Below, in pieces: positions 569 through 54,063 of a DNA stretch of 64,000 bases; within the stretch, counting starts at the first letter, position 1; the number at the start of each line of letters is the position of its first letter. This stretch comes from Leptospiria bacterium. GTDB taxonomy: Bacteria > Spirochaetota > Leptospiria > Turneriellales > CBDBES01. Location: positions 1,402,720 to 1,466,719 of the forward strand of contig OZ253494.1 in NCBI GenBank assembly GCA_965262015.1, read 5' to 3'. A program made the translations under genes and the position numbers. The notes under the pieces were generated by a model, which ran no database searches, had not been told where the DNA came from, and worked only from the letters and a program-made list of their open reading frames with translations.

Positions 569-610
569 ATGTAGCACCCATGGAGATATGTTACAGTTGT
601 CCCCCTAAGC
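569..610 (+). repeat. Core of a short interspersed repeat whose inverted partner lies at 29264-29304
   Basis: ATGTAGCACCCATGGAGATATGTTACAGTTGTCCCCCTAAGC matches the reverse complement of 29264-29304 at about 37/42 positions. Weaker similarity continues about 25 nt on each side. Confidence 0.7.
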
Positions 611-636
611 CACCTTCGTAACCTTGTAATGGAAAG

Positions 637-1036
637 GTGAGCAGTTTCTCTTTGTAAAGAGCCTACACTATGTTATTGATCATAGTACAAAATCTAAATA
701 TATTTTTTTGTTTTAATGTCAGATAATATGTTTTTCTGTCAAAATATCTTCTTAGTTGTTTGATAGAGTTTTCTACTTGTCCCTTTTGCCAAGGTGAACC
801 TGGGCTACATGCATATATAGGAGTATGTAGCATTCCCTGTAAATTTCTAAATGATGTATTTTCAGTGTCCCTGTCACAGATGATAACCTGGATATTATCT
901 ATCTGAGAAAACAACTGTATATGTATCCATTATTCATAATAAATTTTCATTGGTCGTTCCCCTTACTTTTAATACTTTTTAAGAAAAACAGCTTATAAAT
1001 ACCTTAAACTATCCAGCTCTGGACTTGACTTTCCAA
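637..1036 (-). mobile_element. Decayed IS30-family element remnant (copy 1, right end eroded)
   Basis: It contains a transposase C-terminal fragment. The left-end region AAGAAAAACAGCTTATAAATACCTTAAACTATCCAG...GACTTTCC is homologous to the copies at 12151, 40444 and 52454. Confidence 0.7.
663..914 (-). pseudogene. IS30-family transposase C-terminal fragment
   Basis: This 83-aa ORF contains ICDRDTEN...ACSPGSPWQKGQVENSIKQLRRYF, which resembles the IS30 DDE C-terminal signature (P-W-Q-R-G-x-N-E-N...R-x-Y-F-P-K). The N-terminal two-thirds of the protein are missing. Confidence 0.7.
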
Positions 1037-2830: not shown

Positions 2831-2845
2831 GTATGTGGTTGTCTA

Positions 2846-3811
2846 ATGATGCCCACAAGCCTTTCCCAAACTATTTGTATAAGAGATCGAAAGATTTCTA
2901 ATTCTGCAAAACCATTTCTTATAGCGGAGATTGGTCTTAATCATAATAACAACGTTAATTTTGCTAAACAAATTATAGTAGAAGCAATTAATGCAGGAGC
3001 TGATGCTATAAAAATACAATCCTATACTACTGACCAATTTATTAATATAAATCAAAATAAAATTAGTTTTTTTTATGATATTTTCAAAAAATATGAGCTA
3101 AGTTTATATAATCACCAGATTATAGATGCATTCTGTCAAGATAATGGTATACTATTTTTTTCAACACCTCTTTCACTAGATTGGGTTGATAAACTAGAAA
3201 CCTTAAATGTACCTATGTATAAAATAGCTTCAGGAGACCTAGAAAACTATTGGTTACTTAATAAAATAGCTTTATGTAAAAAGCCTATCTTTATTTCTAC
3301 GGGTGCTTCTCTTATGGCAAATATCAAAAATACTGTCCAGTTTTTACAGTCTAAAGAAATTAATGAAATAGTTATTTTTCATTGTATTTCATTATATCCA
3401 ACCCCCATAGAAAAAATAAATCTAAAAAGAATGCAGCAGATAAAAAATAATTTTTCTGCACTAGTAGGATTTTCTGATCATACCACAGGAGTAGATGCAT
3501 CTGCTTATGCTGTACTAATGGGAGCATCTGTAATTGAAAAACATTTTACAATAAATAAGAATGCAGATGGACCTGATCATAAATTAAGTGTTACACCTGA
3601 TGAATTAAAGCAAATTCGTCAAAAAATAGATGAAGCTTTTGAAATTCGTAATACCAATCAAGTGGATTCATGGAATCAAGAATTTAGTGGCGATTATTTT
3701 GGGAAAAGGAGTATGTATAAAATTAATAATAAATGGCTACCAATGAGGCCTAAAATTGATAATCTATATTCTCCATATGATTTTGATTTTTTCCAAGAAC
3801 ACCACACTTAA
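2846..3811 (+). CDS. NeuB-family (sialic/pseudaminic/legionaminic acid-type) synthase, apparently lacking the C-terminal SAF domain
   Basis: The segment PFLIAEIGLNHNNNVNFAKQIIVEAINAGADAIKIQ...GFSDHT...VIEKHFT matches the NeuB TIM-barrel motifs. The 321-aa protein ends without a recognisable SAF/antifreeze-like domain. Confidence 0.65.
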   Translation: MMPTSLSQTICIRDRKISNSAKPFLIAEIGLNHNNNVNFAKQIIVEAINAGADAIKIQSYTTDQFININQNKISFFYDIFKKYELSLYNHQIIDAFCQDNGILFFSTPLSLDWVDKLETLNVPMYKIASGDLENYWLLNKIALCKKPIFISTGASLMANIKNTVQFLQSKEINEIVIFHCISLYPTPIEKINLKRMQQIKNNFSALVGFSDHTTGVDASAYAVLMGASVIEKHFTINKNADGPDHKLSVTPDELKQIRQKIDEAFEIRNTNQVDSWNQEFSGDYFGKRSMYKINNKWLPMRPKIDNLYSPYDFDFFQEHHT

Positions 3812-11948: not shown

Positions 11949-12150
11949 ATCCGCCAGCTATCGGCATTTATTTATTTTATTTAACAAAAAATTATATGTA
12001 GTAGATTCTATTTGAATGATGGTGGTTTAATTTAGTTATATTTTTTAAAAATTATATCTCATGAAAGAGAAATACATAGAATCCTTGAATAAGATCAAGA
12101 AGAGTTTACGATATTACAAAGATAATGAGATTCATAAAAAAGCAGGGATT

Positions 12151-12645
12151 GAAGAGCCAGTACCATCTCTGTACAAAATAAACTTGGTTAGCGGTTTTCC
12201 ATTGTAAAGATGGCTTACACATGTTATTAATTATGGTACAAGATCTAAATATATTTTTTTATTTGAACACCTGATCATCTGCCTTTCTGTTAAAATATTT
12301 TTTTAGTTGTTTGATAGAGTTTTTAACCTGCCCTTTTTGTCATGATAAACCCATAGCCAATACATATACAGGAGCATATAGCATTTTCTGTAAATTTATA
12401 AATGATATATTTTCAGTTCCCCTATCACAAATTATCACCCGTATATTTGCCACTCAAGAAAATAAATATTTTCATGTTATATATAAACCTAAAATAAATG
12501 TATATATGAGCTATTTTTCAATAGCTCATATTCTCTAATAAATACTTCTGCATATTTTCATTAGTCATTCTCCTTATTTTTCATCTTTTTAAGAAAAACA
12601 GCTCATGAATACCTTAAACTGTCCAGGGTTGAACTGGCCTTTCAA
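12151..12645 (-). mobile_element. IS30-family remnant (copy 2), internally deleted; forms the left boundary of the array
   Basis: The right-end IR-like GAAGAGCCAGTACCATCTCTGTACAAAATAAACTTGGTTAGC aligns over 42 nt with copy 4 at 52454. It carries a degraded transposase C-terminal region, and the left-end region ends at ...CCAGGGTTGAACTGGCCTTTCAA. Confidence 0.7.
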
Positions 12646-12692
12646 CCAGTTACATAATTTCTTGACTATACACACCTACATCAGATTTATAT

Positions 12693-12727
12693 TTTTCTAA
12701 ATAGGCAGAGCATGCCTATTTAGAAAA
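12693..12727 (+). promoter_or_regulatory. Conserved palindrome/hairpin (15-bp stem, 5-nt loop) ending 8 nt before the start codon of paralog 1
   Basis: The sequence is TTTTCTAAATAGGCA-GAGCA-TGCCTATTTAGAAAA. Copies lie upstream of all four paralogs, and no Shine-Dalgarno is visible between the palindrome and the ATG. Confidence 0.55.
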
Positions 12728-12734
12728 TACAAAT

Positions 12735-14615
12735 ATGAAATACATAAAAAATATGAACACTACGTTAATGAATAGCGTCAATTGGCATCCAAGATGGTCA
12801 TTAGTTATGTGTGTTGGTCTTATGGTATTTATGATCTTTGGCGTATCTCTGTCTACAGGATGTTCTATCACCTTTCCAGGTAGAATAGTCAATCCCCCTC
12901 CCCTCCCTGATATAGATTGCCCTACAGGTATGGCTCGCCTTGCAAATACTTCTAAAAAAACTACAGACACCTGCATGCTTGATGCCGGTGGTGATGGTAT
13001 TCCTAATTCCACGGATACTGATGGCGATGGTATTCCTGATTCCATGGATGTAGATGCTGATGGTGATGGTTTGATAGAGATAAAAACTGCTGAGATGCTA
13101 GATAACATGCGCTATGATTTGGCGGGAACAAGCTATAAGACCTCGGCGACACAAACAACAGGTAATACAGATGGTTGCCCTGCTGTTGGCAGTGGTGGTT
13201 GTAACGGCTACGAACTAACGGCCGACATTGATCTTTTGAGCTTGCTTGATGCCAACGGTAATGGGATGATCGATACGACGATGGAGGGCATTGATAAAAA
13301 TGCCGACGGCGATACTACAGATATCGGTGAGCAAATAACAGTTATTGATACTACTGCAGATACAAGCTGGATGCCTATTGGTGATAATTCGACAAATGAT
13401 GACATAACTCGCTTCACAGGCACTTTTGAGGGCAACAACCATACTATCGCCAACCTTTGGGTGAATATCTCTTCTTCTGCCTCTAACGCCTATGCGGGTT
13501 TGTTTGGCGTGACGGGTGGCACGGTGACCATTCGCAACCTGGAGATTATCGACGGCTCAATTTATTCTTATTCCACGGGTTCTAATTTTAATCCTGTCTC
13601 TGGCGGTCTGGTGGGACTTTCTGCTGCTTCTTTGATGATTATGAATAGTACTTTTAGTGGGTCTGGTGGAGTCTTTTCTTCTGCCGCTGCTAATTCTACT
13701 AATACTCTTTCTCGCTCAGGTGGCATGGTAGGGCAGGCTGATAATACTTTGACGATCATCAAGTGTATTTTTAGTGCATCTGGTGGAGTCTCTTCTTCTT
13801 CTACTAATTCTTCTTCCCGTTCTGATTCTGGTGGTCTAGTGGGTACTTCTTCGTCTTTAACAATAACCAATAGTACTTTTAGTGGGTTAGGTGGGGTTTC
13901 TTCTTCCTCTACCGCTACTACTACTCTTCGTGATTCTCTTGCAGGCGGTATTGTTGGTTTTCCTACTGGTATCTCAACTATCACCAATTCGTATTTTAGT
14001 GGATCTGGTGGAGTCTCTTCTTCTTCTACGACTACCGATTCTTATGTTGGCGGTCTGGTGGGGACTAGTAATGCTTCTTTCATGATCAAAAATAGTTATT
14101 TTTCTGGGTTTGGTGATATCTTTTCTTTTGCTTCTGGTGGGTCGTCTATATCAGGTGGTCTGGTTGCTCACAGTCACCATGGCACTCCTTTAACGATCAT
14201 CAATAGTTATTTTAGTGGATCTGGTAAAGTCTCTTCTTCTACCTCAGGTTCTGTATCTTATTCAGGTGGTCTGGTGGGTCGTTCTACTGCTTCTTTGACG
14301 ATCACAAACAGTTATTGGAATACAGAGACATCTCAAAGTGTGGGAGGCTCTCCCCAAAACCCAAAACGGGCACAGGGTAATGCTGCGATGAACCCATCAG
14401 GCACAACTGGCCTCACCTTAGTGCAACTGCAAGCTATCACTGGCATACACCCATCTGGTCTGCCACATAGTGCCACCGACGACACCAAAGCGTGGGACCT
14501 TGGCACCGATATGCAATTACCTGCGGTTAAGCTGTGTATCCCCACGATCACAAGCGGTGTCGCTAACTGGGCGATATGTGCATCATACGGCACTCTGCTT
14601 GCCGGGCAAAGATAG
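12735..14615 (+). CDS. Surface lipoprotein paralog 1: TSP3-like Ca-binding module plus 7 GLUG-type repeats
   Basis: This 626-aa protein has a signal peptide ending LSTGC (Cys43). It carries one DCPTGMARLANTSKKTTDTC loop and the DTDGDGIPDSMDVDADGDG motif, then a core FTGTFEGNNHTIANLW...GLFG. Seven GG(L/M/I)VG...I.NS.FSG.G repeats follow, and the C-terminus is NSYWNTET...WDLGT..QLPAVKLC...LLAGQR. Confidence 0.85.
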   Translation: MKYIKNMNTTLMNSVNWHPRWSLVMCVGLMVFMIFGVSLSTGCSITFPGRIVNPPPLPDIDCPTGMARLANTSKKTTDTCMLDAGGDGIPNSTDTDGDGIPDSMDVDADGDGLIEIKTAEMLDNMRYDLAGTSYKTSATQTTGNTDGCPAVGSGGCNGYELTADIDLLSLLDANGNGMIDTTMEGIDKNADGDTTDIGEQITVIDTTADTSWMPIGDNSTNDDITRFTGTFEGNNHTIANLWVNISSSASNAYAGLFGVTGGTVTIRNLEIIDGSIYSYSTGSNFNPVSGGLVGLSAASLMIMNSTFSGSGGVFSSAAANSTNTLSRSGGMVGQADNTLTIIKCIFSASGGVSSSSTNSSSRSDSGGLVGTSSSLTITNSTFSGLGGVSSSSTATTTLRDSLAGGIVGFPTGISTITNSYFSGSGGVSSSSTTTDSYVGGLVGTSNASFMIKNSYFSGFGDIFSFASGGSSISGGLVAHSHHGTPLTIINSYFSGSGKVSSSTSGSVSYSGGLVGRSTASLTITNSYWNTETSQSVGGSPQNPKRAQGNAAMNPSGTTGLTLVQLQAITGIHPSGLPHSATDDTKAWDLGTDMQLPAVKLCIPTITSGVANWAICASYGTLLAGQR

Positions 14616-14700
14616 ACGACTGCCATCCAGTGATGCTCTACTCGCTGGGCGAAGATAAGCATTACCGACAATAGTACTGAGGATAAAGTAACCAAAGGGC

Positions 14701-15066
14701 TTGCTAGGATTAAAAGAAACTGGTGTTTCAGCACCCACGACAAGTTATGGATTCGGCACTGCAACTGGAGAAATGGATGGTGGATATGGTACCTCCATTC
14801 CATCAAGCATAGGTAGTGCAGGAACTGCAACGGAGCGTGCTGCTAAGTTGACGTCAAGCGACGTTGATGTATCATCGTGGAATGATGTTAGTCAAAACAC
14901 CAAAGGTGCTTGGAACTTCGGTACCCTTATGCAAATCCCTGCCCTTAAATACGCCGACTATGACGGTACTGGTACTATATTCTATTGCAACAGTGTTATG
15001 TCTACACCTACAACTGGAATTCCTATTCCTAACTGTGGTGAATTCATCCCTGGACAGGCTAGGTAG
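14701..15066 (+). CDS. Hypothetical 121-aa ORF homologous to the C-terminal domain of the lipoprotein paralogs (possible domain relic)
   Basis: It has a TTG start. Its C-terminus TKGAWNFGTLMQIPALKYADYDGTG..FYC...IPNCGEFIPGQAR parallels TKAWDLGTASQLPAVKLC...CASYGALLAGQR. An identical copy lies at 23702-24067. Confidence 0.35.
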   Translation: MLGLKETGVSAPTTSYGFGTATGEMDGGYGTSIPSSIGSAGTATERAAKLTSSDVDVSSWNDVSQNTKGAWNFGTLMQIPALKYADYDGTGTIFYCNSVMSTPTTGIPIPNCGEFIPGQAR

Positions 15067-15130
15067 AAGGTGGTGAAAGAGATCATATCACCTTCTGCTT
15101 AAGAATATATCTGCAGGGCTTTAAGGAATT

Positions 15131-15175
15131 GAGCGTTAGAGCTGAACAGAGCCAAAACAATAGACCTGGCTTAGC
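15131..15175 (-). repeat. Extra solo copy of the IS right-end IR-like sequence
   Basis: GAGCGTTAGAGCTGAACAGAGCCAAAACAATAGACCTGGCTTAGC resembles the IR region CTGGACAGAATAGACTTGGTTAGC of copy 4. It recurs at about 21261 and about 24140. Confidence 0.5.
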
Positions 15176-15215
15176 TATTATTTGCAAAATTTAGATTAGA
15201 TTTTTATTTTCTTTT

Positions 15216-15245
15216 AACGGTGTTGGTTCTTGTACCAACACCGTT
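15216..15245. repeat. Perfect 12-bp-stem hairpin (AACGGTGTTGGT-TCTTGT-ACCAACACCGTT) inside the inter-IR segment
   Basis: I read it directly, and copies lie at 21346-21375 and 24217-24246. It is absent from the unit 2/3 junction. Confidence 0.8.
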
Positions 15246-15271
15246 ATTCATGTTGATTGATCCTGTAAAAT

Positions 15272-15505
15272 CGAGAAATTAGCATTTGCTCTGGACAGAA
15301 ATAGGCCTGGCTTAGCCTAGTATCTTTATCTCATAAAAGACAGCAGATTTTGATAGATTTATTTTATGAGCTATTTTTCAATAGCTCATATTCTCTAATA
15401 AATACTTCTGCATATTTTTATTAGTTATTCTCCTTATTTTTCATCTTTTTAAGAAAAACAGCTCATGAATACCTTAAACCGTCCAGGGTTGAACTAGCCT
15501 TTCAA
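15272..15505 (-). mobile_element. MITE-like IS30 derivative at the unit 1/2 boundary
   Basis: The right-end IR-like ...CTCTGGACAGAAATAGGCCTGGCTTAGCC is joined directly to the IS 5' region (GAGCTATTTTTCAATAGCTC...AAGAAAAACAGCTCATGAATACCTTAAACCGTCCAGGGTTGAACTAGCCTTTCAA). There is no transposase ORF. Confidence 0.6.
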
Positions 15506-15550
15506 CCAGTTACACAATTCTTGACCATACACATCTACTTAGGTGCATGG

Positions 15551-15583
15551 CTTCTAAATAGGCAGAGTATGCCTATTTAGAAG
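15551..15583 (+). promoter_or_regulatory. Conserved leader palindrome (14-bp stem) upstream of paralog 2
   Basis: The sequence is CTTCTAAATAGGCA-GAGTA-TGCCTATTTAGAAG. The outer stem pair C:G replaces the T:A of units 1 and 3, so both arms changed. Confidence 0.55.
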
Positions 15584-15591
15584 ATACAAAT

Positions 15592-18111
15592 ATGAAATAC
15601 ATAAAAAATATGAACACTACGTTAATGAATAGCGTCAATTGGCATGCAAGATGGTCATTAGTTATATGTGTTGGTCTTATGGTATTTATGATCTTTGGCG
15701 TATCTTTGTCTACAGGATGTTCTATCACCTTTCCAGGTAGAATAGTCAATCCCCCTCCCCTCCCCGATGTAGATTGCCCTACAGGTACGGCTCGCCTTGC
15801 AAATACTTCTAAAAAAACTACAGACACCTGCATGCTTGATGCTGATTCCGATGCTCCTGATGTAGATTGCCCTACGGGTATGGCTCGCCTTGCAAATGCT
15901 TCTAAAAAAACTACAGACACCTGCATGCCCGATACTGATGGTGACGGTACTCCTGATGTAACTTGTCTTATGGGCACCATTCGTTTGGCAGGTACTTCTA
16001 TAAATACTATGGACACTTGTGTCCCCGATGATGACGGCGATGGTATTCCTGATTCCATGGATGTAGATGCTGATGGTGATGGTTTGATAGAGATAAAAAC
16101 TGCTGAGATGCTAGATAACATGCGCTATGATTTGGCGGGAACAAGCTATAAGACTAAGGCTCAGGACTTAGCGGGTGAAGATGGTAATACAGATGGTTGC
16201 CCTGCTGTTGTTAGTAGCAGTGGAGATTGTAACGGCTACGAACTAACGGCCGACATTGATCTTTTGAGCTTGCTTGATGCAAATGGCAATGGGATGATTG
16301 ATACGACGATGGAGGGCATTGATAAAAATACTGACGGCGATACAACAGATGCAGGTGAGCAAATAACAGTTATTGATATAGGTACGGGCAAAGACAAAAG
16401 TTGGGTGCCCATTGGTACTACTGGCACGGAGAACAGCTTCACAGGCACTTTTGAAGGCAATAACCACACCATCGCTAACCTTTGGGTGAATATCTCTTCT
16501 TCTAGCTCTACTGTTTATGCGGGTTTGTTTGGTCTAGCGGGTGGCCCGAGCATTCGTAATGTGGGGGTTATTTCAGGTTCAATTCACGCTTTTTCTTCTG
16601 ATTCTTCTTCTGAGTCTTATTCAGGCGGTTTGGTGGGTTATTCTGGGAGTACTTTGAGTATTACGAATAGTTATTTTAGCGGTGGGGGTGGAGTTTCTTC
16701 TAATTCTTATTCTAATTCAGGCGGTTTGGTGGGTTATTCTGGGAGTACTTTGACAATAACGAATAGTTATTTTAGCGGTGCGGGTGGAGTTTCTTCTGCT
16801 TCTTCTTCAGGCGGTTTGGTGGGTTATTCTGGGAGTACTTTGAGTATTACGAATAGTTATTTTAGTGGTGTGGGTGGAGTTTCTGATTCTTCTGCTTTTC
16901 GTTCTTCTTCAGGCGGTTTGGTGGGTTATTCTGTGGGGAGTACTTTGAGTATTACGAATAGTTATTTTAGCGGTGGGGGTGGAGTTTCTTCTTCTACTTC
17001 TTCTAGTTCCTCTGAGTCTTATTCAGGCGGTTTGGTGGGTTATTCTAGAAGTACTTTGATAATAACGAATAGTTATTTTAGCGGTGGGGGTGGAGTTTCT
17101 ACTTCTTCTGCTTTTCGTTCTTCTTCAGGCGGTTTGGTGGGTTATTCTGAGAGTACTTTGAGTATTATGAATAGTTATTTTAGCGGTGTGGGTGGAGTTT
17201 CTTCTGATTCTTCTTCTTCTAATTCAGGCGGTTTGGTGGGTTATTCTGGGAGTACTTTGAGTATTACGAATAGTTATTTTAGCGGTGCGGGTGGAGTTTC
17301 TTCTGCTTCTTCTTCAGGTGGTTTGGTGGGTTATTCTGGGAGTACTTTGAGTATTACGAATAGTTATTTTAGTGGTGTGGGTGGAGTTTCTGATTCTTCT
17401 GCTTTTCGTTCTTCTTCAGGCGGTTTGGTGGGTTATTCTGGGAGTACTTTGAGTATTACGAATAGTTATTTTAGCGGTGGGGATGGAGTTTCTTCTAATT
17501 CTACTACTTCTTCTTCTAATTCAGGCGGTTTGGTGGGTTATTCTCAGAGTGGGAGTACTTTGATGATTATGAATAGTTATTTTAGCGGTGGGGGTGGAGT
17601 TTCTTCTAATTCTACTACTTCTTCTTCTAATTCAGGCGGTTTGGTGGGTTATTCTGTGGGGAGTACTTTGAGTATTACGAATAGTTATTTTAGCGGTGGG
17701 GGTGGAGTTTCTTCTAATTCTACTACTTCTTCTTCTAATTCAGGCGGTTTGGTGGGTTATTCTGTGAGTACTGTGAGTACTTTGACGATTACGAATAGTT
17801 ATTGGGACAACAGTGTGCCTCAAAGTGTAGATGGCTCTCCCCAAAGTCTGCGGGTCGTGGGTAGCTCTTCGACGAATCCAATGGGTGCAACTGGTCTCAC
17901 CTTAACGCAACTACAAGCTATCACTGTTAGCACTACAAGTGCCCCATCCCCATCTGGTTTGCCACATAGTGCCACTGATAATACCAAATCTTGGGACCTA
18001 GGCACCGCAAGCCAGCTACCTGCGGTTAAGTTATGCGTTAGCCCCACGGTTAGCAGCACCAACGTTGTAACATGTGCGTCATACGGTGCTCTGCTTGCCG
18101 GGCAACGATAG
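15592..18111 (+). CDS. Surface lipoprotein paralog 2: three Cys-loop/TSP3-like modules plus 12 GLUG-type repeats
   Basis: This 839-aa protein has the same signal peptide and LSTGC as paralog 1. It carries three (V/I)DCPTG.ARLAN.SKKTTDTC-type modules and 12 copies of GGLVGYS.STL.I.NSYFSG.GGVS with Ser-rich spacers. Confidence 0.85.
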   Translation: MKYIKNMNTTLMNSVNWHARWSLVICVGLMVFMIFGVSLSTGCSITFPGRIVNPPPLPDVDCPTGTARLANTSKKTTDTCMLDADSDAPDVDCPTGMARLANASKKTTDTCMPDTDGDGTPDVTCLMGTIRLAGTSINTMDTCVPDDDGDGIPDSMDVDADGDGLIEIKTAEMLDNMRYDLAGTSYKTKAQDLAGEDGNTDGCPAVVSSSGDCNGYELTADIDLLSLLDANGNGMIDTTMEGIDKNTDGDTTDAGEQITVIDIGTGKDKSWVPIGTTGTENSFTGTFEGNNHTIANLWVNISSSSSTVYAGLFGLAGGPSIRNVGVISGSIHAFSSDSSSESYSGGLVGYSGSTLSITNSYFSGGGGVSSNSYSNSGGLVGYSGSTLTITNSYFSGAGGVSSASSSGGLVGYSGSTLSITNSYFSGVGGVSDSSAFRSSSGGLVGYSVGSTLSITNSYFSGGGGVSSSTSSSSSESYSGGLVGYSRSTLIITNSYFSGGGGVSTSSAFRSSSGGLVGYSESTLSIMNSYFSGVGGVSSDSSSSNSGGLVGYSGSTLSITNSYFSGAGGVSSASSSGGLVGYSGSTLSITNSYFSGVGGVSDSSAFRSSSGGLVGYSGSTLSITNSYFSGGDGVSSNSTTSSSNSGGLVGYSQSGSTLMIMNSYFSGGGGVSSNSTTSSSNSGGLVGYSVGSTLSITNSYFSGGGGVSSNSTTSSSNSGGLVGYSVSTVSTLTITNSYWDNSVPQSVDGSPQSLRVVGSSSTNPMGATGLTLTQLQAITVSTTSAPSPSGLPHSATDNTKSWDLGTASQLPAVKLCVSPTVSSTNVVTCASYGALLAGQR
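16621..17805 (+). repeat. Intragenic near-identical 90-114-nt tandem repeats (12 units) with a 507-nt higher-order duplication
   Basis: The unit TCAGGCGGTTTGGTGGGTTATTCTGGGAGTACTTTGAGTATTACGAATAGTTATTTTAGCGGTG.GGGTGGAGTTTCT recurs. Repeats 2-3 (from 16717) recur almost base-for-base as repeats 7-8 (from 17224). Confidence 0.9.
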
Positions 18112-18229: not shown

Positions 18230-18407
18230 GGATAAAGTAACCAAAGGTGCTTGGAATTTTGGCACCCTTATGCAAATCCCTGCCCTTAAATACGCCGACT
18301 ATGACGGTACTGGTACTATATTCTATTGCAACAGTGTTATGTCTACACCTACAACTGGAATTCCTATTCCTAACTGTGGTGAATTCATCCCTGGACAGGG
18401 TCGGTAG
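18207..18407 (+). pseudogene. Truncated relic of the downstream C-terminal-domain module (unit 2)
   Basis: It reads ...STEDKVTKGAWNFGTLMQIPALKYADYDGTGTIFYCNSVMSTPTTGIPIPNCGEFIPGQGR*. It lacks the 208 nt present in units 1 and 4 between the direct repeats ACCAAAGG, and it has no usable start codon. Confidence 0.6.
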
Positions 18408-18470
18408 AAGGTGGTGAAAGAGATCATCACCTCCTGCTTAAGAATATATCTGCAGGGCTTTAAGAAATTA

Positions 18471-18702
18471 AGCATTAGAGCTGAACAGAGCCAAAACAAT
18501 AGACCTGGCTTAGCCTAGTATCTTTATCTCATACAGGACAGTAGATTTTGATAGATTGATTTTTTGAGCTATTTTTCAATAGCTCATATTCTCTAATAAA
18601 TACTTCTGTATATTTTGATAAGCTGTTCTTCCTGAATCTTATTATTTAAGAAAAACAGCTCATGAATACCTTAAAACATCCAGGGTTGAACTTGCCTTTC
18701 AA
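18471..18702 (-). mobile_element. MITE-like IS30 derivative at the unit 2/3 boundary (single IR copy, hairpin segment deleted)
   Basis: AGCATTAGAGCTGAACAGAGCCAAAACAATAGACCTGGCTTAGCCTAG is followed directly by the IS 5' region, ending ...CCAGGGTTGAACTTGCCTTTCAA. Confidence 0.6.
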
Positions 18703-18749
18703 CCAGTTACATAATTTCTTGACTATACACACCTACATCAGATTTATAT

Positions 18750-18791: not shown

Positions 18792-20936
18792 ATGAAATAC
18801 ATAAAAAATAAGAATACTACGTTAATGAATAGCGTCAATTGGCATCCAAGATGGTCATTAGTTATGTGTGTTGGTCTTATGGTATTTATGATCTTTGGCG
18901 TATCTTTGTCTACAGGATGTTCTATCACCTTTCCAGGTAGAATAGTCAATCCCCCTCCCCTCCCTGATATAGATTGCCCTACGGGTATGGCTCGCCTTGC
19001 AAATACTTCTAAAAAAATTACAGACACCTGCACGCTTGATGCCGATTCCATTAATACGGATGATGACGGCGATGGTATTCCTGATTCCATGGATGTAGAT
19101 GCTGATGGTGATGGTTTGATAGAGATAAAAAATGCCGTGATGCTAGATAACATGCGCCATGATCTATCGGGTACCAGCTATAAGACTAAGGCTCAGGACT
19201 TAGCGGGTGAAGATGGTAATACAGATGGTTGCCCTGCTGTTGTTAGTGGCAGTGGTGGTTGTAACGGCTACGAACTAACGGCCGATATTGATCTTTTGAG
19301 TTTGCTTGATGCCAACGGTAATGGGATGATCGATACGACGATGGAGGGCATTGATAAAAATGCTGACGGCGATACGACAGATGCAGGTGAGCAAATAACA
19401 GTTATTGATATAGGTACGGGAAAAGATAAAAGTTGGGTGCCCATTGGTACCGTTGGCACGGGGAAAAGCTTCACAGGCACTTTTGAAGGCAATAACCACA
19501 CCATCGCTAACCTTTGGATGAATAGCTCTAATGTCTATACGGGCTTATTTGGTGTAACGGGTGGCACGGTGGCCATTCGCAATGTGGGGGTTATTTCAGG
19601 TTTAATTCACGTTTCTTCTTCTAATTCTGGTTCAGGCGGTTTGGTGGGTTATTCTGGGAGTGGGAGTACTTTGACAATAACGAATAGTTATTTTAGTGGT
19701 GCGGGTGGAGTTTCTTCTCCTTATTCTGCTTCTTATTCAGGCGGTTTGGTGGGTTATTCTGGGAGTGGGAGTACTTTGACAATAACGAATAGTTATTTTA
19801 GTGGTGCGGGTGGAGTTTTTTCTGCTTCTGGTTCAGGCGGTTTGGTGGGTTATTCTGGGAGTACTTTGACAATAACGAATAGTTATTTTAGCGGTGGGGG
19901 TGGAGTTTCTTCTTCTAATTCTTCAGGCGGTTTGGTGGGTGTTTCTGAGAGTACTTTGACAATAACAAATAGTTATTTTAGCGGTGGGGGTGGAGTTTCT
20001 TCTGTTTCTTCTTCTTCTAATTCTTCAGGCGGTTTGGTGGGTTATTCTGGGAGTATGAGTACTTTGATAATAACGAATAGTTATTTTAGCGGTGGGGGTG
20101 GAGTTTCTTCCTCCTCTTCTTCTTATTCTTATTCAGGCGGTTTGGTGGGTTTTTCTGAGAGTACTTTGAGTATTACGAATAGTTATTTTAGCGGTGGGGG
20201 TGGAGTTTCTTCCTCCTCTTCTTCTTATTCTTATTCAGGCGGTTTGGTGGGTTTTTCTGGGAGTACTTTGAGTATTACGAATAGTTATTTTAGCGGTGGG
20301 GGTGGAGTTTCTTCCTCCTCTTCTTCTTCTGTTGCTACTGCTTCTTCTTCTTCAGGCGGTTTGGTGGGTTTTTCTGGGGGTACTTTGAGTATTGCGAATA
20401 GTTATTTTAGTGGTGAGGGTGGAGTTTCTACTACTACTTCTTCTTCTTCTTCTTATTCAGGCGGTTTGGTGGGTTATTCTGGGAGTACTTTGAGTATTAC
20501 GAATAGTTATTTTAGCGGTGGGGGTGGAGTTTCTTCCTCCTCTTCTTCTTCTTCTCATTCAGGCGGTTTGGTGGGTTCTTCTCAGAGTGGGAGTACTTTG
20601 ATGATTATGAATAGTTATTGGAACACAGACGCCCCTCAAAAAATAACTAATGGAATGACTGATCAAAGCCCAAAGCTGGCAGTGGGTAACTCTTCGACGA
20701 ATCGAATGGGTACAACTGGTCTCACCTTAACGCAACTACAAGCTATCACTGTTAGTACTACAAGTGCCCCATCCCCATCTGGTTTGCCACATAGTGCCAC
20801 TGATAATACCAAAGCTTGGGACCTAGGCACCGCAAGCCAGCTACCTGCGGTTAAGTTATGCGTTAGCCCCACGGTTAGCAGCACCAACGTTGTAACATGT
20901 GCATCATACGGTGCTCTGCTTGCCGGGCAACGATAG
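18792..20936 (+). CDS. Surface lipoprotein paralog 3: one Cys-loop/TSP3-like module plus 10 GLUG-type repeats
   Basis: This 714-aa protein has the same signal peptide and LSTGC. It carries 10 copies of GGLVG(Y/F/V/S)S..STL.I.NSYFSG.GGVS. Its C-terminal 90 aa are nearly identical to paralog 2. Confidence 0.85.
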   Translation: MKYIKNKNTTLMNSVNWHPRWSLVMCVGLMVFMIFGVSLSTGCSITFPGRIVNPPPLPDIDCPTGMARLANTSKKITDTCTLDADSINTDDDGDGIPDSMDVDADGDGLIEIKNAVMLDNMRHDLSGTSYKTKAQDLAGEDGNTDGCPAVVSGSGGCNGYELTADIDLLSLLDANGNGMIDTTMEGIDKNADGDTTDAGEQITVIDIGTGKDKSWVPIGTVGTGKSFTGTFEGNNHTIANLWMNSSNVYTGLFGVTGGTVAIRNVGVISGLIHVSSSNSGSGGLVGYSGSGSTLTITNSYFSGAGGVSSPYSASYSGGLVGYSGSGSTLTITNSYFSGAGGVFSASGSGGLVGYSGSTLTITNSYFSGGGGVSSSNSSGGLVGVSESTLTITNSYFSGGGGVSSVSSSSNSSGGLVGYSGSMSTLIITNSYFSGGGGVSSSSSSYSYSGGLVGFSESTLSITNSYFSGGGGVSSSSSSYSYSGGLVGFSGSTLSITNSYFSGGGGVSSSSSSSVATASSSSGGLVGFSGGTLSIANSYFSGEGGVSTTTSSSSSYSGGLVGYSGSTLSITNSYFSGGGGVSSSSSSSSHSGGLVGSSQSGSTLMIMNSYWNTDAPQKITNGMTDQSPKLAVGNSSTNRMGTTGLTLTQLQAITVSTTSAPSPSGLPHSATDNTKAWDLGTASQLPAVKLCVSPTVSSTNVVTCASYGALLAGQR
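19632..20622 (+). repeat. Intragenic near-identical tandem repeats (10 units) with (TCT)n-rich spacers
   Basis: The repeat consensus is the same as in paralog 2. Spacers contain TCTTCTTCTTCT... runs of variable length. Confidence 0.9.
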
Positions 20937-21000
20937 ACGACTGCCATCCAGTGATGCTCTACTCACTGGGCAAAGATAAGCATTGCCGACCGATAGTACT

Positions 21001-21197
21001 GAGGATAAAGTAACCAAAGGGCTTGGAGCTTTGTCACTGGTAAAATCCCTGCCCTTAAATACGCCGACTATGCAGACTATGACGGTACTGGTACTACATT
21101 CTATTGCAACAGTGTTATGTCTACACCTGCAACGGGAATGGGAATGCCCATGCCCATTCCTAACTGTGGTGAATTTATCCCTGGACAGGGTCGGTAG
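21001..21197 (+). pseudogene. Frameshifted relic of the downstream C-terminal-domain module (unit 3)
   Basis: The homologous frame reads ...IPALKYADYADYDGTGTTFYCNSVMSTPATGMGMPMPIPNCGEFIPGQGR*. A 4-nt length difference upstream breaks the frame, so the track ORF 20983-21207 is in a different frame. Confidence 0.55.
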
Positions 21198-21401
21198 AAG
21201 GTGGTGAAAGAGATCATCACCTTCTGCTTAAGAATATATCTGCAGGGCTTTAAGGAATTGAGCGTTAGAGCTGAACAGAGCCAAGAAAGGTAGACCTGGC
21301 TTAGCTATTATTTGCAAAATTTAGATTAGATTTTTATTTTCTTTTAACGGTGTTGGTTCTTGCACCAACACCGTTGTTCATGTTGATTGATCTTGTAAAA
21401 T

Positions 21402-21634
21402 CAAGAAATTAGCATTGGCTCTGGACAGAAATAGACCTGGCCTAACCTCGTATCTTTATCTCATAAAAGACAGCAGATTTTGGTATATGTATATATGAGC
21501 TATTTTTCAATAGCTCATATTCTCTAATAAATACTTCTGCATATTTTTATTAGTTATTCTCCTTATTTTTCATCTTTTTAAGAAAAACAGCTCATGAATA
21601 CCTTAAACCGTCCAGGGTTGAACTAGCCTTTCAA
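21402..21634 (-). mobile_element. MITE-like IS30 derivative at the unit 3/4 boundary
   Basis: It has the same architecture as 15272-15505, and an extra IR copy lies at about 21261-21305. Confidence 0.6.
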
Positions 21635-21679
21635 CCAGTTACACAATTCTTGACCATACACATCTACTTAGGTGCATGG

Positions 21680-21712
21680 CTTCTAAATAGGCAGAGTATG
21701 CCTATTTAGAAG
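21680..21712 (+). promoter_or_regulatory. Conserved leader palindrome (14-bp stem) upstream of paralog 4
   Basis: The sequence CTTCTAAATAGGCA-GAGTA-TGCCTATTTAGAAG is identical to the unit 2 copy. Confidence 0.55.
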
Positions 21713-21720
21713 ATACAAAT

Positions 21721-23616
21721 ATGAAATACATAAAAAATATGAACACTACGTTAATGAATAGCGTCAATTGGCATCCAAGATGGTCATTAGTTATGTGTGT
21801 TGGTCTTATGGTATTTATGATCTTTGGCGTATCTTTGTCTACAGGATGTTCTATCACCTTTCCAGGTAGAATAGTCAATCCCCCTCCCCTCCCCGATGTA
21901 GATTGCCCTACAGGTACGGCTCGCCTTGCAAATACTTCTAAAAAAACTACAGACACCTGCATGCTTGATGCCGATTCCGATGCTCCTGATGTAGATTGCC
22001 CTACGGGTATGGCTCGCCTTGCAAATGCTTCTAAAAAAACTACAGACACCTGCATGCCCGATACTGATGGTGACGGTACTCCTGATGTAACTTGTCTTAT
22101 GGGCACCATTCGTTTGGCAGGTACTTCTATAAATACTATGGACACTTGTGTCCCCGATGATGACGGCGATGGTATTCCTGATTCCATGGATGTAGATGCT
22201 GATGGTGATGGTTTGATAGAGATAAAAACTGCTGAGATGCTAGATAACATGCGCTATGATTTGGCGGGAACAAGCTATAAGACCTCGGCGACACAAACAA
22301 CAGGTAATACAGATGGTTGCCCTGCTGTTGGCAGTGGTGGTTGTAACGGCTACGAACTAACGGCCGATATTGATCTTTTGAGTTTGCTTGATGCCAACGG
22401 TAATGGGATGATCGATACGACGATGGAGGGCATTGATAAAAATGCTGACGGCGATACGACAGATGCAGGTGAGCAAATAACAGTTATTGATACTACTGCA
22501 GATACAAGCTGGATGCCTATTGGTGATAATTCGACAAATGATGACATAACTCGCTTCACAGGCACTTTTGAGGGCAACAACCACACCATCGCCAACCTCT
22601 GGGTGAATATTTCTTCTTCGGATAACGCCCATGCGGGTTTATTTGGCGTAACGGGTGGAACAACGGTGACCATTCGCAATGTGAGTGTCATTTCAGGCTC
22701 AATTCATTCTTCTGCTACTTCTGCTTCTGGTCAATCTAATGCAGGCGGTTTGGTGGGACTTTCTACTGCTTCTTTAATAATAAGTGATTGTACTTTTTCT
22801 GGATCGCTTGGGGTCTCTACTTCTAATAATGCTGGCGGTCTAGTGGGTGCGTCTGGTGCTCCTTTAATAATAAGCAATTGTACTTTTTTGGGGTCGGGTG
22901 ATATCTCTTCTTCTAATCAAAGTGGTTCTTCTGCTGGTGGTCTGGTGGGGTGGATTAGTTCTTCTTTGACAATCACTAATTCCATTTTTTCTGGGTCGGG
23001 TGATATCTCTGCTTCTGCTTCTAATGGTTCTACTCATTCTGGCGGTCTGGTGGGGTGGATGAGTTCTTCTTTGACAATCACTAATTGCATTTTTTCTGGG
23101 TCGGGTGATATCTCTGCTTCTTCTCCTTCTGCTTCTAATAGTTCTATTGTTGGCGGTTTGACTGGTCACGCTTACTCTACCTCTCCCGTTTCTTGGACAA
23201 TTACTAATTGCAGTTTCTTTGGCTCTGGTCAAATCTCTTCTATGGGTACTAATAGTTTTACTGTTGGCGGTTTGATTGGAACTACTAACAGTTCTTTGAC
23301 GATAAGAAACAGTTATTGGAACAAAGATGCCATCCAAAGAGTGGGTGGCTCTAACCAAAGCCCCAAGAGGGCGAAGGGTGACGCTTCTTCAGATCCATCT
23401 GGCACGATTGGCCTCACCTTAGTAGAACTGCAAGCTATTACTGGCATACACCCATCTGGTTTGCCACATAGTGCCACCGACAGCACCAAAGCTTGGGACC
23501 TAGGCACTGCAAGCCAGCTACCCGCTATTAAGCTGTGTATTCCCACCATCACAAGCGGTGTCACCGATTGGACGATGTGTGCGTCATACGGTGCTCTGCT
23601 TGCTGGGCAACGATAG
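21721..23616 (+). CDS. Surface lipoprotein paralog 4 (chimeric): three Cys-loop/TSP3-like modules plus 6 divergent GLUG-type repeats
   Basis: This 631-aa protein has a 5' part of about 470-560 nt almost identical to paralog 2. Its central region is of the paralog 1 type with a paralog 3 patch. It carries six GGL(V/T/I)G...I(S/T)N(C/S).F.GSG.IS repeats. Confidence 0.85.
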   Translation: MKYIKNMNTTLMNSVNWHPRWSLVMCVGLMVFMIFGVSLSTGCSITFPGRIVNPPPLPDVDCPTGTARLANTSKKTTDTCMLDADSDAPDVDCPTGMARLANASKKTTDTCMPDTDGDGTPDVTCLMGTIRLAGTSINTMDTCVPDDDGDGIPDSMDVDADGDGLIEIKTAEMLDNMRYDLAGTSYKTSATQTTGNTDGCPAVGSGGCNGYELTADIDLLSLLDANGNGMIDTTMEGIDKNADGDTTDAGEQITVIDTTADTSWMPIGDNSTNDDITRFTGTFEGNNHTIANLWVNISSSDNAHAGLFGVTGGTTVTIRNVSVISGSIHSSATSASGQSNAGGLVGLSTASLIISDCTFSGSLGVSTSNNAGGLVGASGAPLIISNCTFLGSGDISSSNQSGSSAGGLVGWISSSLTITNSIFSGSGDISASASNGSTHSGGLVGWMSSSLTITNCIFSGSGDISASSPSASNSSIVGGLTGHAYSTSPVSWTITNCSFFGSGQISSMGTNSFTVGGLIGTTNSSLTIRNSYWNKDAIQRVGGSNQSPKRAKGDASSDPSGTIGLTLVELQAITGIHPSGLPHSATDSTKAWDLGTASQLPAIKLCIPTITSGVTDWTMCASYGALLAGQR

Positions 23617-23701
23617 ACGACTGCCATCCAGTGATGCTCTACTCGCTGGGCGAAGATAAGCATTACCGACAATAGTACTGAGGATAAAGTAACCAAAGGG
23701 C

Positions 23702-24067
23702 TTGCTAGGATTAAAAGAAACTGGTGTTTCAGCACCCACGACAAGTTATGGATTCGGCACTGCAACTGGAGAAATGGATGGTGGATATGGTACCTCCATT
23801 CCATCAAGCATAGGTAGTGCAGGAACTGCAACGGAGCGTGCTGCTAAGTTGACGTCAAGCGACGTTGATGTATCATCGTGGAATGATGTTAGTCAAAACA
23901 CCAAAGGTGCTTGGAACTTCGGTACCCTTATGCAAATCCCTGCCCTTAAATACGCCGACTATGACGGTACTGGTACTATATTCTATTGCAACAGTGTTAT
24001 GTCTACACCTACAACTGGAATTCCTATTCCTAACTGTGGTGAATTCATCCCTGGACAGGCTAGGTAG
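23702..24067 (+). CDS. Hypothetical 121-aa C-terminal-domain-like ORF (identical copy of 14701-15066)
   Basis: The protein sequence in the track is identical to that of 14701-15066. Confidence 0.35.
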   Translation: MLGLKETGVSAPTTSYGFGTATGEMDGGYGTSIPSSIGSAGTATERAAKLTSSDVDVSSWNDVSQNTKGAWNFGTLMQIPALKYADYDGTGTIFYCNSVMSTPTTGIPIPNCGEFIPGQAR

Positions 24068-24272
24068 AAGGTGGTGAAAGAGATCATATCACCTTCTGCT
24101 TAAGAATATATCTGCAGGGCTTTAAGGAATTGAGCGTTAGAGCTGAACAGAGCCAAAACAATAGACCTGGCTTAGCTATTATTTGCAAAATTTAGATTAG
24201 ATTTTTATTTTCTTTTAACGGTGTTGGTTCTTGTACCAACACCGTTGTTCATGTTGATTGATCCTGTAAAAT

Positions 24273-24506
24273 CGAGAAATTAGCATTTGCTCTGGACAGA
24301 AATAGGCCTGGCTTAGCCTAGTATCTTTATCTCATACAGGACAGTAGATTTTGATAGATTGATTTTTTGAGCTATTTTTCTATAGCTTATATGTTCTAAT
24401 AAATCCTTCTGTATATTTTTATTGGCTGTTCTACTTATTTTTCATCTTTTTAAGAAAAACAGCTCATGAATACCTTAAACCGTCCAGGGTTGAACTGGCC
24501 TTTCCA
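24273..24506 (-). mobile_element. MITE-like IS30 derivative closing the array
   Basis: It has the same architecture as the other boundary elements but is more diverged (GAGCTATTTTTCTATAGCTTAT). It ends ...CCAGGGTTGAACTGGCCTTTCCA. No leader palindrome follows it. Confidence 0.55.
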
Positions 24507-40381: not shown

Positions 40382-40443
40382 ATAAACGCTACTAAGTATA
40401 TACTTATGTCTCTTATGTATATTACTTTATTTTATAGTGTATT

Positions 40444-41051
40444 GGAGAGTCTGGAGTTGGACAGTTTAAGGTGTTCATAAGCCGTTTTTCTTAAAAGTAT
40501 TAAGACTTAGGAGGAATAGTTTATGAAAATATACAACGAAAAGCAGATATTTATTTTAGGTCTATTCATAGCATAACAAATAGTATGAAAAAAGCATTTG
40601 GAGTATGGAAAATAGACACCATGTACATACAAAATGAGTATATTGCTGTGGCTGTAGAACAGTATTTCGAAAAATTATAGTAATACTGATACTTAATCTA
40701 AAAGCAGAAACATGATTAGAAGCATGGAAACAGTTGTTTTCTCGAGTGGAAAATATACGGGCTATCGTTTATGGCAGGAGGAATTGAAAATATATCATTT
40801 AGAAATTTATAGAGAATGCTAAATATAGTAGTCTATGCATGCAACCCAGGTTCACCATGGCAAAAAGAACAGATTGAGGATGCCATCAAATAAGATAGGA
40901 AGATATTTTGACAGAAAGACAGATTATCAGACATTAAAACAAAAAAATATATTTAGATCTTGTACTATGATCAATAACATGTACAAGCTTATTGTTGTAA
41001 GGGGAAACTGCTGACCAAGTCTATTCTGTCTAGCTCCGGTGCTGACTCTCC
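40444..41051 (+). mobile_element. IS30-family remnant (copy 3), both termini preserved, body collapsed to 608 bp
   Basis: It carries terminal inverted repeats GGAGAGTC (40444) and GACTCTCC (41044-41051). The interior holds transposase fragments interrupted by stops (..ACNPGSPWQKEQIEDAIK*..). Confidence 0.75.
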
Positions 41052-41132
41052 AGATATTATGTAGTTTTTTATAAAAATTGTACTTGTTTTAGAACTGAAA
41101 AAATAGTAAGATCACCCCTTTAGAGGCATGGT

Positions 41133-52368: not shown

Positions 52369-52453
52369 TTAAATAATATACCAGAATAATAAATAATAAA
52401 ATTAGAGAGTCATGTTTGCAATCAGATATTTTAGTTATTATGGAAAGTCCAGT

Positions 52454-52975
52454 GGAGAGTCCATATCAGTTCTGGACAGAATAGACTTGGTTAGCTGTTT
52501 TTCCTTGTAAGGAACGGCCTATACATATTATTCATCATAGCACAAAATCTAAATATGTTTTTTGTTTGTAACATGCAATAATCTGTTTCCTCTTAAAATA
52601 TCTTCTTAGTTATTTGATAGTGTTCTCACCTGTCCTCTATCACAAATTATCGTCTGTATATTTCCCGCTCAAGAAAATAAATATTTCCATGAAGCGAATA
52701 ATGTTTCTGTTCTTGAATTAGGTATAGGCATTGCCATCATTTTTTAAGGTATCGTTCTACAGCTACAGCGATATAACCATTCTTAATAAATGGTGTCTAT
52801 TTCCCGTACTTCAAATATTTTTTTCATGCTAAATCAACCTAAGATATTTTTTTAGAGCTATAGATTGGCCCTAAGATGCCTTTTTTTCAACCACGATATA
52901 TTGATACCATATTCCAAAATACCGTGAATAATAAGCTGTACACCCTAATGCCATAAAAGGTACCGGCATTATAGA
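52454..52975 (-). mobile_element. IS30-family remnant (copy 4); right coordinate end uncertain
   Basis: It starts with the IR GGAGAGTCCATATCAGTTCTGGACAGAATAGACTTGGTTAGC. It carries degraded C-terminal and N-terminal transposase segments; the reverse complement of 52790-52850 (..MKKIFEVREIDTI..) parallels copy 3 (MKKAFGVWKIDTM). Confidence 0.6.
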
Positions 52976-52999
52976 GTCATTTTAAATGACTTAAAACTA

Positions 53000-53605
53000 A
53001 TGTTGATTTTAATTGGGATCTTTATGATCTCTTGTAGTGCTGACAATCCTGGAGGGGCCGAAGCTGAAAAATGTAAAGCTGAAGAGTTTTACGCCGATGG
53101 TTCTATTAGGGTAGTAAGAGAATGTCATGACAATGGTAAAGTCTCAAAACTAACTGAATATAGTGGCATAGGCAAATCTACCACAGATAACCCCGATAGA
53201 TTCAAGGCAGAGAACCCTAAGAAGGACCCTATAAGCGTTGACCCTGTAAACGGGTACAAGTCCTTAGAGACTACTTATAATGAAGAGGGTGTTAGAACGG
53301 GATCAGTAACCTTTTATGCTGATGGGAAAGTTCAAAAAACAACAACTTACACCTCAGATGGAGTAAATGAAGGCGAGGTGACGTCTACGAATAGGGATGG
53401 TAAGAATACCGTCACTATGAACCTATACCGCTCGGATGGAAAATTAAGAAAACGTATAAGGACGGGCCCAGAAGAAGGTGTGAAGCGGACAAGCTACTAT
53501 GACGAAAACGGCAATGAATGTGGTCTACGGGATTCAGATGGCCGGGAGATCTCACCCCGCATCAACGATGGAACTACAAAATGTGTAGCTGCCGATGCAG
53601 AATAA
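53000..53605 (+). CDS. Putative lipoprotein with YD/MORN-like short repeats, compositionally atypical
   Basis: It begins MLILIGIFMISC, a short signal peptide with no charged n-region. It carries repeats such as FYADGSIRV, FYADGKVQKTTTY, LYRSDGKLRK and SYYDENGNECG. It looks visibly GC-richer than its neighbours. Confidence 0.55.
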   Translation: MLILIGIFMISCSADNPGGAEAEKCKAEEFYADGSIRVVRECHDNGKVSKLTEYSGIGKSTTDNPDRFKAENPKKDPISVDPVNGYKSLETTYNEEGVRTGSVTFYADGKVQKTTTYTSDGVNEGEVTSTNRDGKNTVTMNLYRSDGKLRKRIRTGPEEGVKRTSYYDENGNECGLRDSDGREISPRINDGTTKCVAADAE

Positions 53606-53759
53606 ATAAAGATTAAATAACTAAATAAAAATAAACCGTCAGTTTACATGAAAAAGCTGGCGGTTACCAAAACAATAATCAAAATACAAAAAATAGTCTT
53701 TATGGCTTGTGGTAGCTGGTATGATCAAGGGGCTAGTCTTGACATCGCTCAAGCAATAG

Positions 53760-54008
53760 CCAGCTTACAAGAACAAGTAAATGTTTTAGAGAATCAGATG
53801 ATTGATTTTATCTTTATTTCATAAAAGACAGCAGATTTTGGTATATTTATTTTATGAGTTATTTTCTATAGCTCATATCCTCTATTAAATACTTCTGTAT
53901 AAGTATTTATTTTTCGTTATATATTTTGTTGGTCATCCTCTAAGTATCATTACTTAAGAAAAATAGCTTGTGGATAAATAAACTGTCCAGCTCGATACTT
54001 GACTTTCC
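53760..54008 (-). mobile_element. MITE-like IS30 derivative upstream of exbB
   Basis: The sequence ATCTTTATTTCATAAAAGACAGCAGATTTTGG...GAGTTATTTTCTATAGCTCAT...AAGAAAAATAGCTTGTGGATAAATAAACTGTCCAG...GACTTTCC is homologous to the array boundary elements. Confidence 0.6.
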
Positions 54009-54063
54009 AAGTAAGTCTTTGAAAAAGACTTGTCAGTCAAAGATATATATTATTTTATGAAGC

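Follow-up and report, generated by a model that had tools for sequence, protein, structure and literature searches.

Fossil stumps of an IS30-family insertion sequence (IS) mark the boundaries of a tandem lipoprotein gene array in the window, i.e., the whole 64-kb stretch of DNA analysed here. These stumps were most likely spread along the array by unequal recombination between two copies that flanked an ancestral gene, a reading to which we assign a probability of roughly 0.78.

Boundary elements of the lipoprotein array

Four GLUG-motif lipoprotein paralogs, identified from the open reading frame (ORF) list and Pfam, lie in tandem on the + strand in units of 2.86-3.20 kb, which differ in the number of internal repeats (90-117 nt) carried by the genes. 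Alignment of the five inter-unit regions revealed a boundary repeat that lies upstream of all four paralogs and whose last 60 nt are nearly invariant. In the following list, IRL and IRR designate the left and right terminal inverted repeats (IRs).

12149..12645, - strand: J0, decayed IS30-family copy with both IRs, upstream of paralog 1 (tblastn/HMM match at 12175-12474, E 1e-28)
12735..14615, + strand: paralog 1, GLUG-motif lipoprotein (ORF list; Pfam Glug, E 7.5e-10)
15120..15175, - strand: IRR1, solo right-end IR with a 9-bp insertion (blastn, motif search, alignment)
15271..15505, - strand: J1, mini-IS comprising IRR2 and the last codons, the first ~43 codons (HTH remnant), the 5'UTR and IRL
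15592..18111, + strand: paralog 2, GLUG-motif lipoprotein (ORF list, Pfam)
18459..18702, - strand: J2, mini-IS with a hybrid IRR1/IRR2 right end, from which a 141-bp interval and its hairpin are deleted
18792..20936, + strand: paralog 3, GLUG-motif lipoprotein (ORF list)
21404..21634, - strand: J3, mini-IS sharing 96% identity with J1 and resembling J0 in a short patch at ~21470-21496
21721..23616, + strand: paralog 4, GLUG-motif lipoprotein (ORF list)
24273..24506, - strand: J4, mini-IS closing the array, with unique fabD-upstream DNA beyond its IRL tip

Three strings typify the repeat: a 29-mer (AAGAAAAACAGCTCATGAATACCTTAAAC), a 20-nt hairpin (GAGCTATTTTTCAATAGCTC) and a 25-nt tip (GTCCAGGGTTGAACTAGCCTTTCAA). 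Each is present at all five array sites, where shuffled sequences lead one to expect none. The ~235-bp mini-elements occupy 15271/2-15505, 18498-18702, 21404-21634 and 24273-24506, a shift of only 0-27 nt from the coordinates given in a preliminary description of this DNA; the blastn match of the last one reaches 24504. Other parts of that description stand as well. All array elements share the same orientation (-), and at three junctions the right-end IR is duplicated, the second copy lying 141 nt upstream (15120-15175, 21249-21305 and 24121-24176; blastn and motif search). The unit 2/3 junction has one hybrid IR (18459-18514) into which both copies have merged, with a single right-end motif and a 141-bp gap that falls between AATAGACCTGGCTTAGC and AATAGGCCTGGCTTAGC. 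Recombination between the two right-IR copies, acting as short repeats, would have deleted this interval.

The proposed fusion of a right-end IR to the IS 5' end also holds, and runs from the IRR and last codons to the first ~43 codons, the 5'UTR and IRL. The minus strand of J1 reads ..MQKYLLENMSY*KIAHKINLSKSAVFYEIKILG and aligns with ..GVSYRKTAAELGLSKTAVYYEVQ of P0003, an intact relative described below, and the HTH remnants of J1, J2 and J4 read KIAHKINLSKSAVFYEIK. After codon ~43, J1-J4 switch directly to GCTAAGCCAGGCCTATTTCTGTCCAGAG, which corresponds by homology to the final codons and the right end of J0 and of two other IS remnants in the window, C and D (GCTAACCAAGTCTATTCTGTCCAGA). Because codon ~43 abuts the last codons and the right end, the boundary element is a fusion of two ends, with AAAGATA/CTAGGCTAAGCC as the deletion junction of J1-J4 and CCTGGCTTAGCCTAGTATCTTTATCTCAT as the junction string. 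The interior of J1 is 91% identical at the DNA level to copy D over 90 nt, which ties the J elements to the interior of the IS. By these alignments, the ~235-bp mini-element is a non-autonomous internal-deletion derivative of an IS30-family IS with its transposase on the minus strand.

J0 is a different deletion derivative, in which the 5'UTR, ~19 codons and transposase aa ~217-315 survive but aa ~20-43 are missing. The ~230-bp element that had been placed inside 12151-12645 is therefore only partly present there: J0 shares the IRR and the 141-bp IS 5' end (12505-12645, 97% identical to J1), whereas the full 235-bp element is absent. An IS origin of the 100-bp interval between IRR1 and IRR2 was considered and dropped, as no significant IS homology was detected in it and local alignments scored no better than shuffles.

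ORF-like tails follow the paralogs at 14701-15066 and 23702-24067, with shorter ones at 18247-18417 and 20983-21207. They encode ..AWNFGTLMQIPALKYADYDG.., which resembles the paralogs' own C-terminus ..AWDLGTDMQLPAVKL.., and are probably remnants of a truncated further paralog; Pfam gives no match for them. Models for FlgE, GspC_delta and Leptospira-type (LIC) surface proteins also match nearby, the matches to the LIC family in the window lying at 50516-51760 and 1661-2830.

Ends and transposase of a divergent IS30 lineage

Read inwards from the tip, every left and right end shows TGGAAAGTCAAGT, ~7 variable nt and CTGGACAG. The tips of these ends are set independently by four unrelated flanks, those of remnants A, C and D (listed below) and of the array. 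The right-end motif AATARRCYTGG(N0-1)TYAGC occurs eight times in the window against zero expected, always at predicted IS ends, and the coding remnant ANQVYFVQ of J0 continues into its IRR. In place of ISfinder entries, the reference for comparison was provided by the ends of two full-length uncultured IS30-family relatives, L011 and L012. These elements of ~1.1 kb (1,095 and 1,114 bp) end in IRs of 31 and 40 nt, and their transposase stop codon falls within the IRR. Their IRs read TGCAAACTCAAAT..TAGGACAC(TTTGAGG), and the tip 13-mer is identical to the window consensus at 10 of 13 positions. In the window and in the relatives, the subterminal GGACA-TTT-AGG block is equally far from the tip. 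The likeness to IS30-family ends on which the preliminary description had staked its assignment is thus found in both end architecture and tip sequence. As a side observation, the intact relative P0155 in L012 (ENA contig ctg14672) is located beside an IS5-like transposase (2552-3347) and a FlaA-domain gene (1-366), whose product we take to be a spirochaete-type flagellar sheath protein. With the LIC-type matches in the window, this setting may point to a spirochaete-like source.

Outside the array, the 29-mer recurs at 981-1009 (+) and 40464-40492 (-). Three further copies are each attached to a frame containing ..ICDRGTEN..PGSPWQKGQVENSIKQLRRYF.., on the strand opposite to the array genes. 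The remnants are as follows.

600..1035, - strand: IS remnant A, with IRL and transposase aa ~218-301 (= P0001) but no clear right end
40443..41052, + strand: IS remnant C, with both IRs and transposase aa ~143-314, in the orientation opposite to that of the array
52441..54009, - strand: IS remnant D, with its 5' part at 54009-53800 and its 3' part at 52830-52441

The two halves of D flank an unrelated + strand lipoprotein-like ORF (53000-53605, weak MORN_2 match), and the 12-nt tip of its right IR is tandemly duplicated (TGGAAAGTCCAG/TGGAGAGTCCAT). In total, the 64 kb contain nine IS30-derived pieces, none of them intact, and every IS copy in the window has stops or frameshifts. Clustered IS ends recall the insertion of IS30 beside its own IRs, a targeting reaction that gives abutted IRL-IRR junctions (PMC9333248). 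Here too, IS ends are found close together, but they consist of two right IRs in direct orientation 141 nt apart and, in D, of an IRR with a duplicated tip. Since the product of IR-targeting is an abutted IRL-IRR junction, this reaction was rejected as the source of the doubled right IR.

A protein search with the remnant retrieved only fragments, namely P0001 (83 aa) and its paralog P0002 (111 aa), both recorded on a contig of 1,922,353 bp. Pieces of these two types are annotated as short genes in the public record. The transposase fragments match the IS30-family model NF033563 of NCBIfam with E-values of 4e-16 (P0002, profile positions 165-264 of 267) and 1.5e-12, the next-best NCBIfam families being IS21 (~2e-6) and IS481 (0.002-0.05). 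They remain under the full-length cutoff of NF033563, as no more than the last third of the protein is left. Pfam returned only sub-threshold rve_3 matches for the fragments. Thirty-three residues separate the second D from the E in P0001, P0002 and P0003 (CD-33-E of VEN/VES), and this DD(33)E spacing is a typical hallmark of the IS30 family; the first catalytic D is missing from the fragments.

An exhaustive HMMER search yielded 869 relatives at E<=1e-3. P0003 (56% identity), P0006 and P0008 are the closest full-length ones, with 43-56% identity and, for the full-length set, a size of 317-326 aa. These three proteins carry rve and HTH_38 domains (PF13936 in the relatives) and are among the closest intact relatives, which pass the IS30 cutoff with 125-196 bits against 80; the three themselves score 125-147 bits. 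A profile HMM built from 12 relatives was run against the six-frame translation of the whole window, and intact relatives were used in tblastn. Matches were found only at predicted IS sites, the best unrelated one scoring -4.8 bits. C-terminal transposase matches (profile ~143-317) lie at 666-917, 12175-12474, 40503-41024 and 52472-52830; those of A, J0 and C have E-values of 1e-28 to 1e-32, and that of D reaches 7e-12 (52594-52830). N-terminal HTH matches (profile 4-42, 13.7-16.9 bits) lie at 15324-15419 in J1 (profile positions 10-41, 13.8 bits), 18519-18614 in J2 and 24325-24438 in J4, with a weak one at 53803-53883 in copy D.

The IS30-family origin put forward at the outset is thus upheld by the NF033563 match, the DD(33)E spacing, the HTH and the IRs with a stop in or at the IRR. 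As in IS30, IS1655, ISAba125 and ISApl1, the element combines a DDE transposase and an N-terminal HTH, its ORF spans the element as far as the right IR, in or at which it stops, its IRs measure tens of bp and its relatives ~1.1 kb. It differs from these in that all copies here are dead fragments and in that no target duplications of 2-3 bp are seen. The flanks of J0, J1, C and D were searched for such duplications, a check suggested by the preliminary description, and no matching flanks were found at any of the four. As a consequence, the transposition origin of each stump is argued entirely from IR and transposase homology. The absence of duplications weakens the IS30 assignment without excluding it, since they may have been lost through decay and later recombination.

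No intact transposase of this lineage is present in the window or among the proteins retrieved. The IS 5'-end pattern has no match in the genome contigs or in the metagenome contigs, P0002 finds only distant IS30 relatives (32-49% identity) in the genome contigs, and P0003 has no match in the metagenome contigs. Because its copies are disrupted and protein searches return no intact transposase, the lineage looks extinct in this genome, as far as the data reach. By sequence comparison it is a divergent IS30 lineage, whose nearest intact relatives, at the identities given above, come from uncultured metagenome contigs.

Probable co-amplification of genes and stumps

The array contains four genes and five elements, i.e., n genes and n+1 direct repeats. 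At its right edge, the homology of J4 to J1-J3 ends at the IRL tip (24505/6), where unique fabD-upstream DNA begins; at its left edge, J0 is homologous to J1-J4 from 12505 onwards, within the IS. The deletion junction is common to J1-J4 and differs in J0. A last element that stops at the IS tip, together with a first one whose left part is unique, indicates that the flanking stumps were already there as direct repeats.

We propose that an ancestral lipoprotein gene would have been located between two directly oriented stumps sharing the 141-bp IS 5' end, J0 upstream and a J4-type mini-IS downstream. Unequal homologous recombination in this shared segment would have led to the first duplication, and the internal junctions would then consist of the left part of J4, the shared segment and the right flank of J0. 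Later exchange anywhere in the ~3-kb units would have produced four genes and five elements, after which gene conversion would have homogenised the units. The earlier suggestion that the direct repeats can drive duplication and deletion of units is backed by the n+1 pattern and by the boundary positions, from which we infer the process rather than observe it.

Several tracts of identity cross the boundaries. Positions 14611-15245 and 23612-24246 are identical over 635 bp spanning element and flanks, and 15365-16154 and 21494-22283 are nearly so over ~790 bp across element and flank. The flanks downstream of the J0 and J2 tips are also identical, and gene 1 has a tract (13023-13225) in common with gene 4 (22165-22367). 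The head of unit 2 thus resembles that of unit 4, and the tail of unit 1 equals that of unit 4. Such long tracts indicate recent gene conversion among the paralogs. In and beside the shared 141 bp, J1-J3 show a patchy mosaic at the 18 sites that differ between J0 and J4. This patchiness led us to abandon the idea of a single clean crossover in the segment, and it hides the place of the original recombination.

It is unlikely that the stumps were pure passengers in an array that arose by IS-independent duplication. As soon as there are two units, their 3 kb of gene homology offer a much better substrate for exchange than 141 bp do, and the conversion tracts inside the genes show that such exchange happens. 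Nevertheless, a passenger role fits poorly with the presence of n+1 elements, with a last element ending exactly at the IS tip against unique DNA and a first one with a unique left part, and with the lack of any non-homologous join at the internal junctions. Under recombination between flanking stumps, we infer that the homology of the 3-kb units would likewise dominate exchange after the first duplication, so that the IS segment may have mattered only once. Today the elements are portable homology at most, and possibly part of the upstream region of the genes.

Tandem gene amplification by unequal crossing-over between direct IS copies is well established, and the array is most likely an ordinary case of this known process that reveals no new mechanism. 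It resembles other IS-flanked amplifications in its n/n+1 arrangement, in the unique flanks kept by its outer repeats and in the homogenisation of its units. It differs from them in that its repeats are fossils of 141-235 bp rather than intact ISs, and in that it is an old, diverged paralog family rather than a recent unstable amplification.

True MITEs that transposed separately into each intergenic region after mobilisation in trans by a full-length IS30-family copy are a highly improbable origin. With ~235 bp, both terminal IRs and derivation from an IS by internal deletion, the elements do have the required structure. Like MITEAba12 and the Correia elements, they are short, non-coding and intergenic, carry the IRs of their parent IS and possibly affect the expression of their neighbours. 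All four copies, however, occupy the same position in homologous flanks, identity tracts cover both element and flanks, no copy has a target-site duplication, the other four IS remnants in the window are structured differently, and an intact transposase of this lineage is missing from the window and the proteins retrieved. In contrast with MITEs, there is no sign of mobilisation here, and the copies are confined to one tandem array in which they multiplied with their flanks. No copy of the same structure was found outside the array in the 64-kb window, all four being array junctions. The term MITE-like used in the preliminary description is therefore apt for the structure, 235 bp from IRR to IRL, and inapt for mobility, given the lack of target-site duplications, of dispersed copies of the same structure in the window and of an intact transposase. 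The literature yielded nothing specific on IS30-derived MITEs.

That the repeat is not IS-derived but a conserved regulatory or leader region of the paralogs, as its presence upstream of every gene and its nearly invariant last 60 nt might suggest, can be dismissed from the transposase matches, the identity to IS copy D and the profile matches: transposase remnants are bordered by the same sequence at three unrelated loci, where it occurs in either orientation, an HTH remnant of IS30 type is encoded in it, and J4 carries it with no lipoprotein gene downstream.

Promoter-like sites, hairpins and significance

Of the -35-like hexamers that had been assigned to the outer tips of the elements, TTGAAC does lie inside IRL, 12 nt from the tip, whereas TTGACT/TTGACC is found 18 nt outside the element. 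Compatible with co-amplification, a putative promoter in which the TTGAAC of IRL serves as the -35 box and the flank supplies the -10 box could drive the lipoprotein genes; we consider this possible but doubtful. TTGAAC-N18-CATAAT is present at 12629-12658 and 18686-18715, upstream of paralogs 1 and 3, and TTGAAC is specific to the array, the other copies having CTGGAC or CGATAC at this position. IS30-family elements are documented donors of -35 boxes: the outward -35 of IS30 is located in IRR and belongs to the promoter formed at the IRR-IRL junction, and ISAba125 provides a -35 comparably (PMC9330008). Against this, the genes of the array adjoin IRL and not IRR, only two of the four have TTGAAC with CATAAT (paralogs 2 and 4 have CACAAT as the upstream -10 hexamer, which fails the scan), the match is 9/12 with a non-optimal spacer of 18 nt, and promoter-like sites are fewer than in shuffles (17 against 29.4).

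Two kinds of hairpin accompany the boundaries; Rfam identifies no family in the window.

15215..15246, 21345-21376 and 24216-24247, + strand: terminator-like hairpin with a 13-bp stem between the two IRR copies (dG -20.9, z -6.0)
12697-12724, 15551-15583 and the same position upstream of 18792 and 21721: palindrome (dG about -21, z -5.6 to -7.4)

The terminator-like hairpin is absent at junction 2/3, and paralogs 2 and 3 may for this reason be co-transcribed. The palindrome, TCTAAATAGGCA..TGCCTATTTAGA, forms a perfect 12-14-bp stem that lies outside the IS, ~10 nt upstream of every lipoprotein start codon, and could be a candidate operator or leader hairpin. No clear Shine-Dalgarno sequence is seen after it upstream of the lipoprotein starts. 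A more far-reaching and rather improbable idea, drawn from the sequence, is that the IS left end would have been domesticated, its array-specific TTGAAC box and the flank serving as promoter of a variable surface-lipoprotein family, that the stumps would act as recombination cassettes varying the number of paralogs and shuffling them for antigenic or phase variation, and that genes 2 and 3 would have become co-transcribed when junction 2/3 lost its hairpin.

The array provides a clean example, dated by its structure, of dead IS ends bounding and probably seeding a tandem family of surface lipoproteins, and its analysis establishes which ends and deletion derivatives belong to an IS30 lineage that is divergent and otherwise uncharacterised. 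It also calls for a correction of annotation, as short ORFs such as P0001 are transposase pseudogene fragments. Copy number and mosaic structure at the array locus likely vary from strain to strain, and the significance of the array would rise if an IR-derived promoter or programmed variation proved true.
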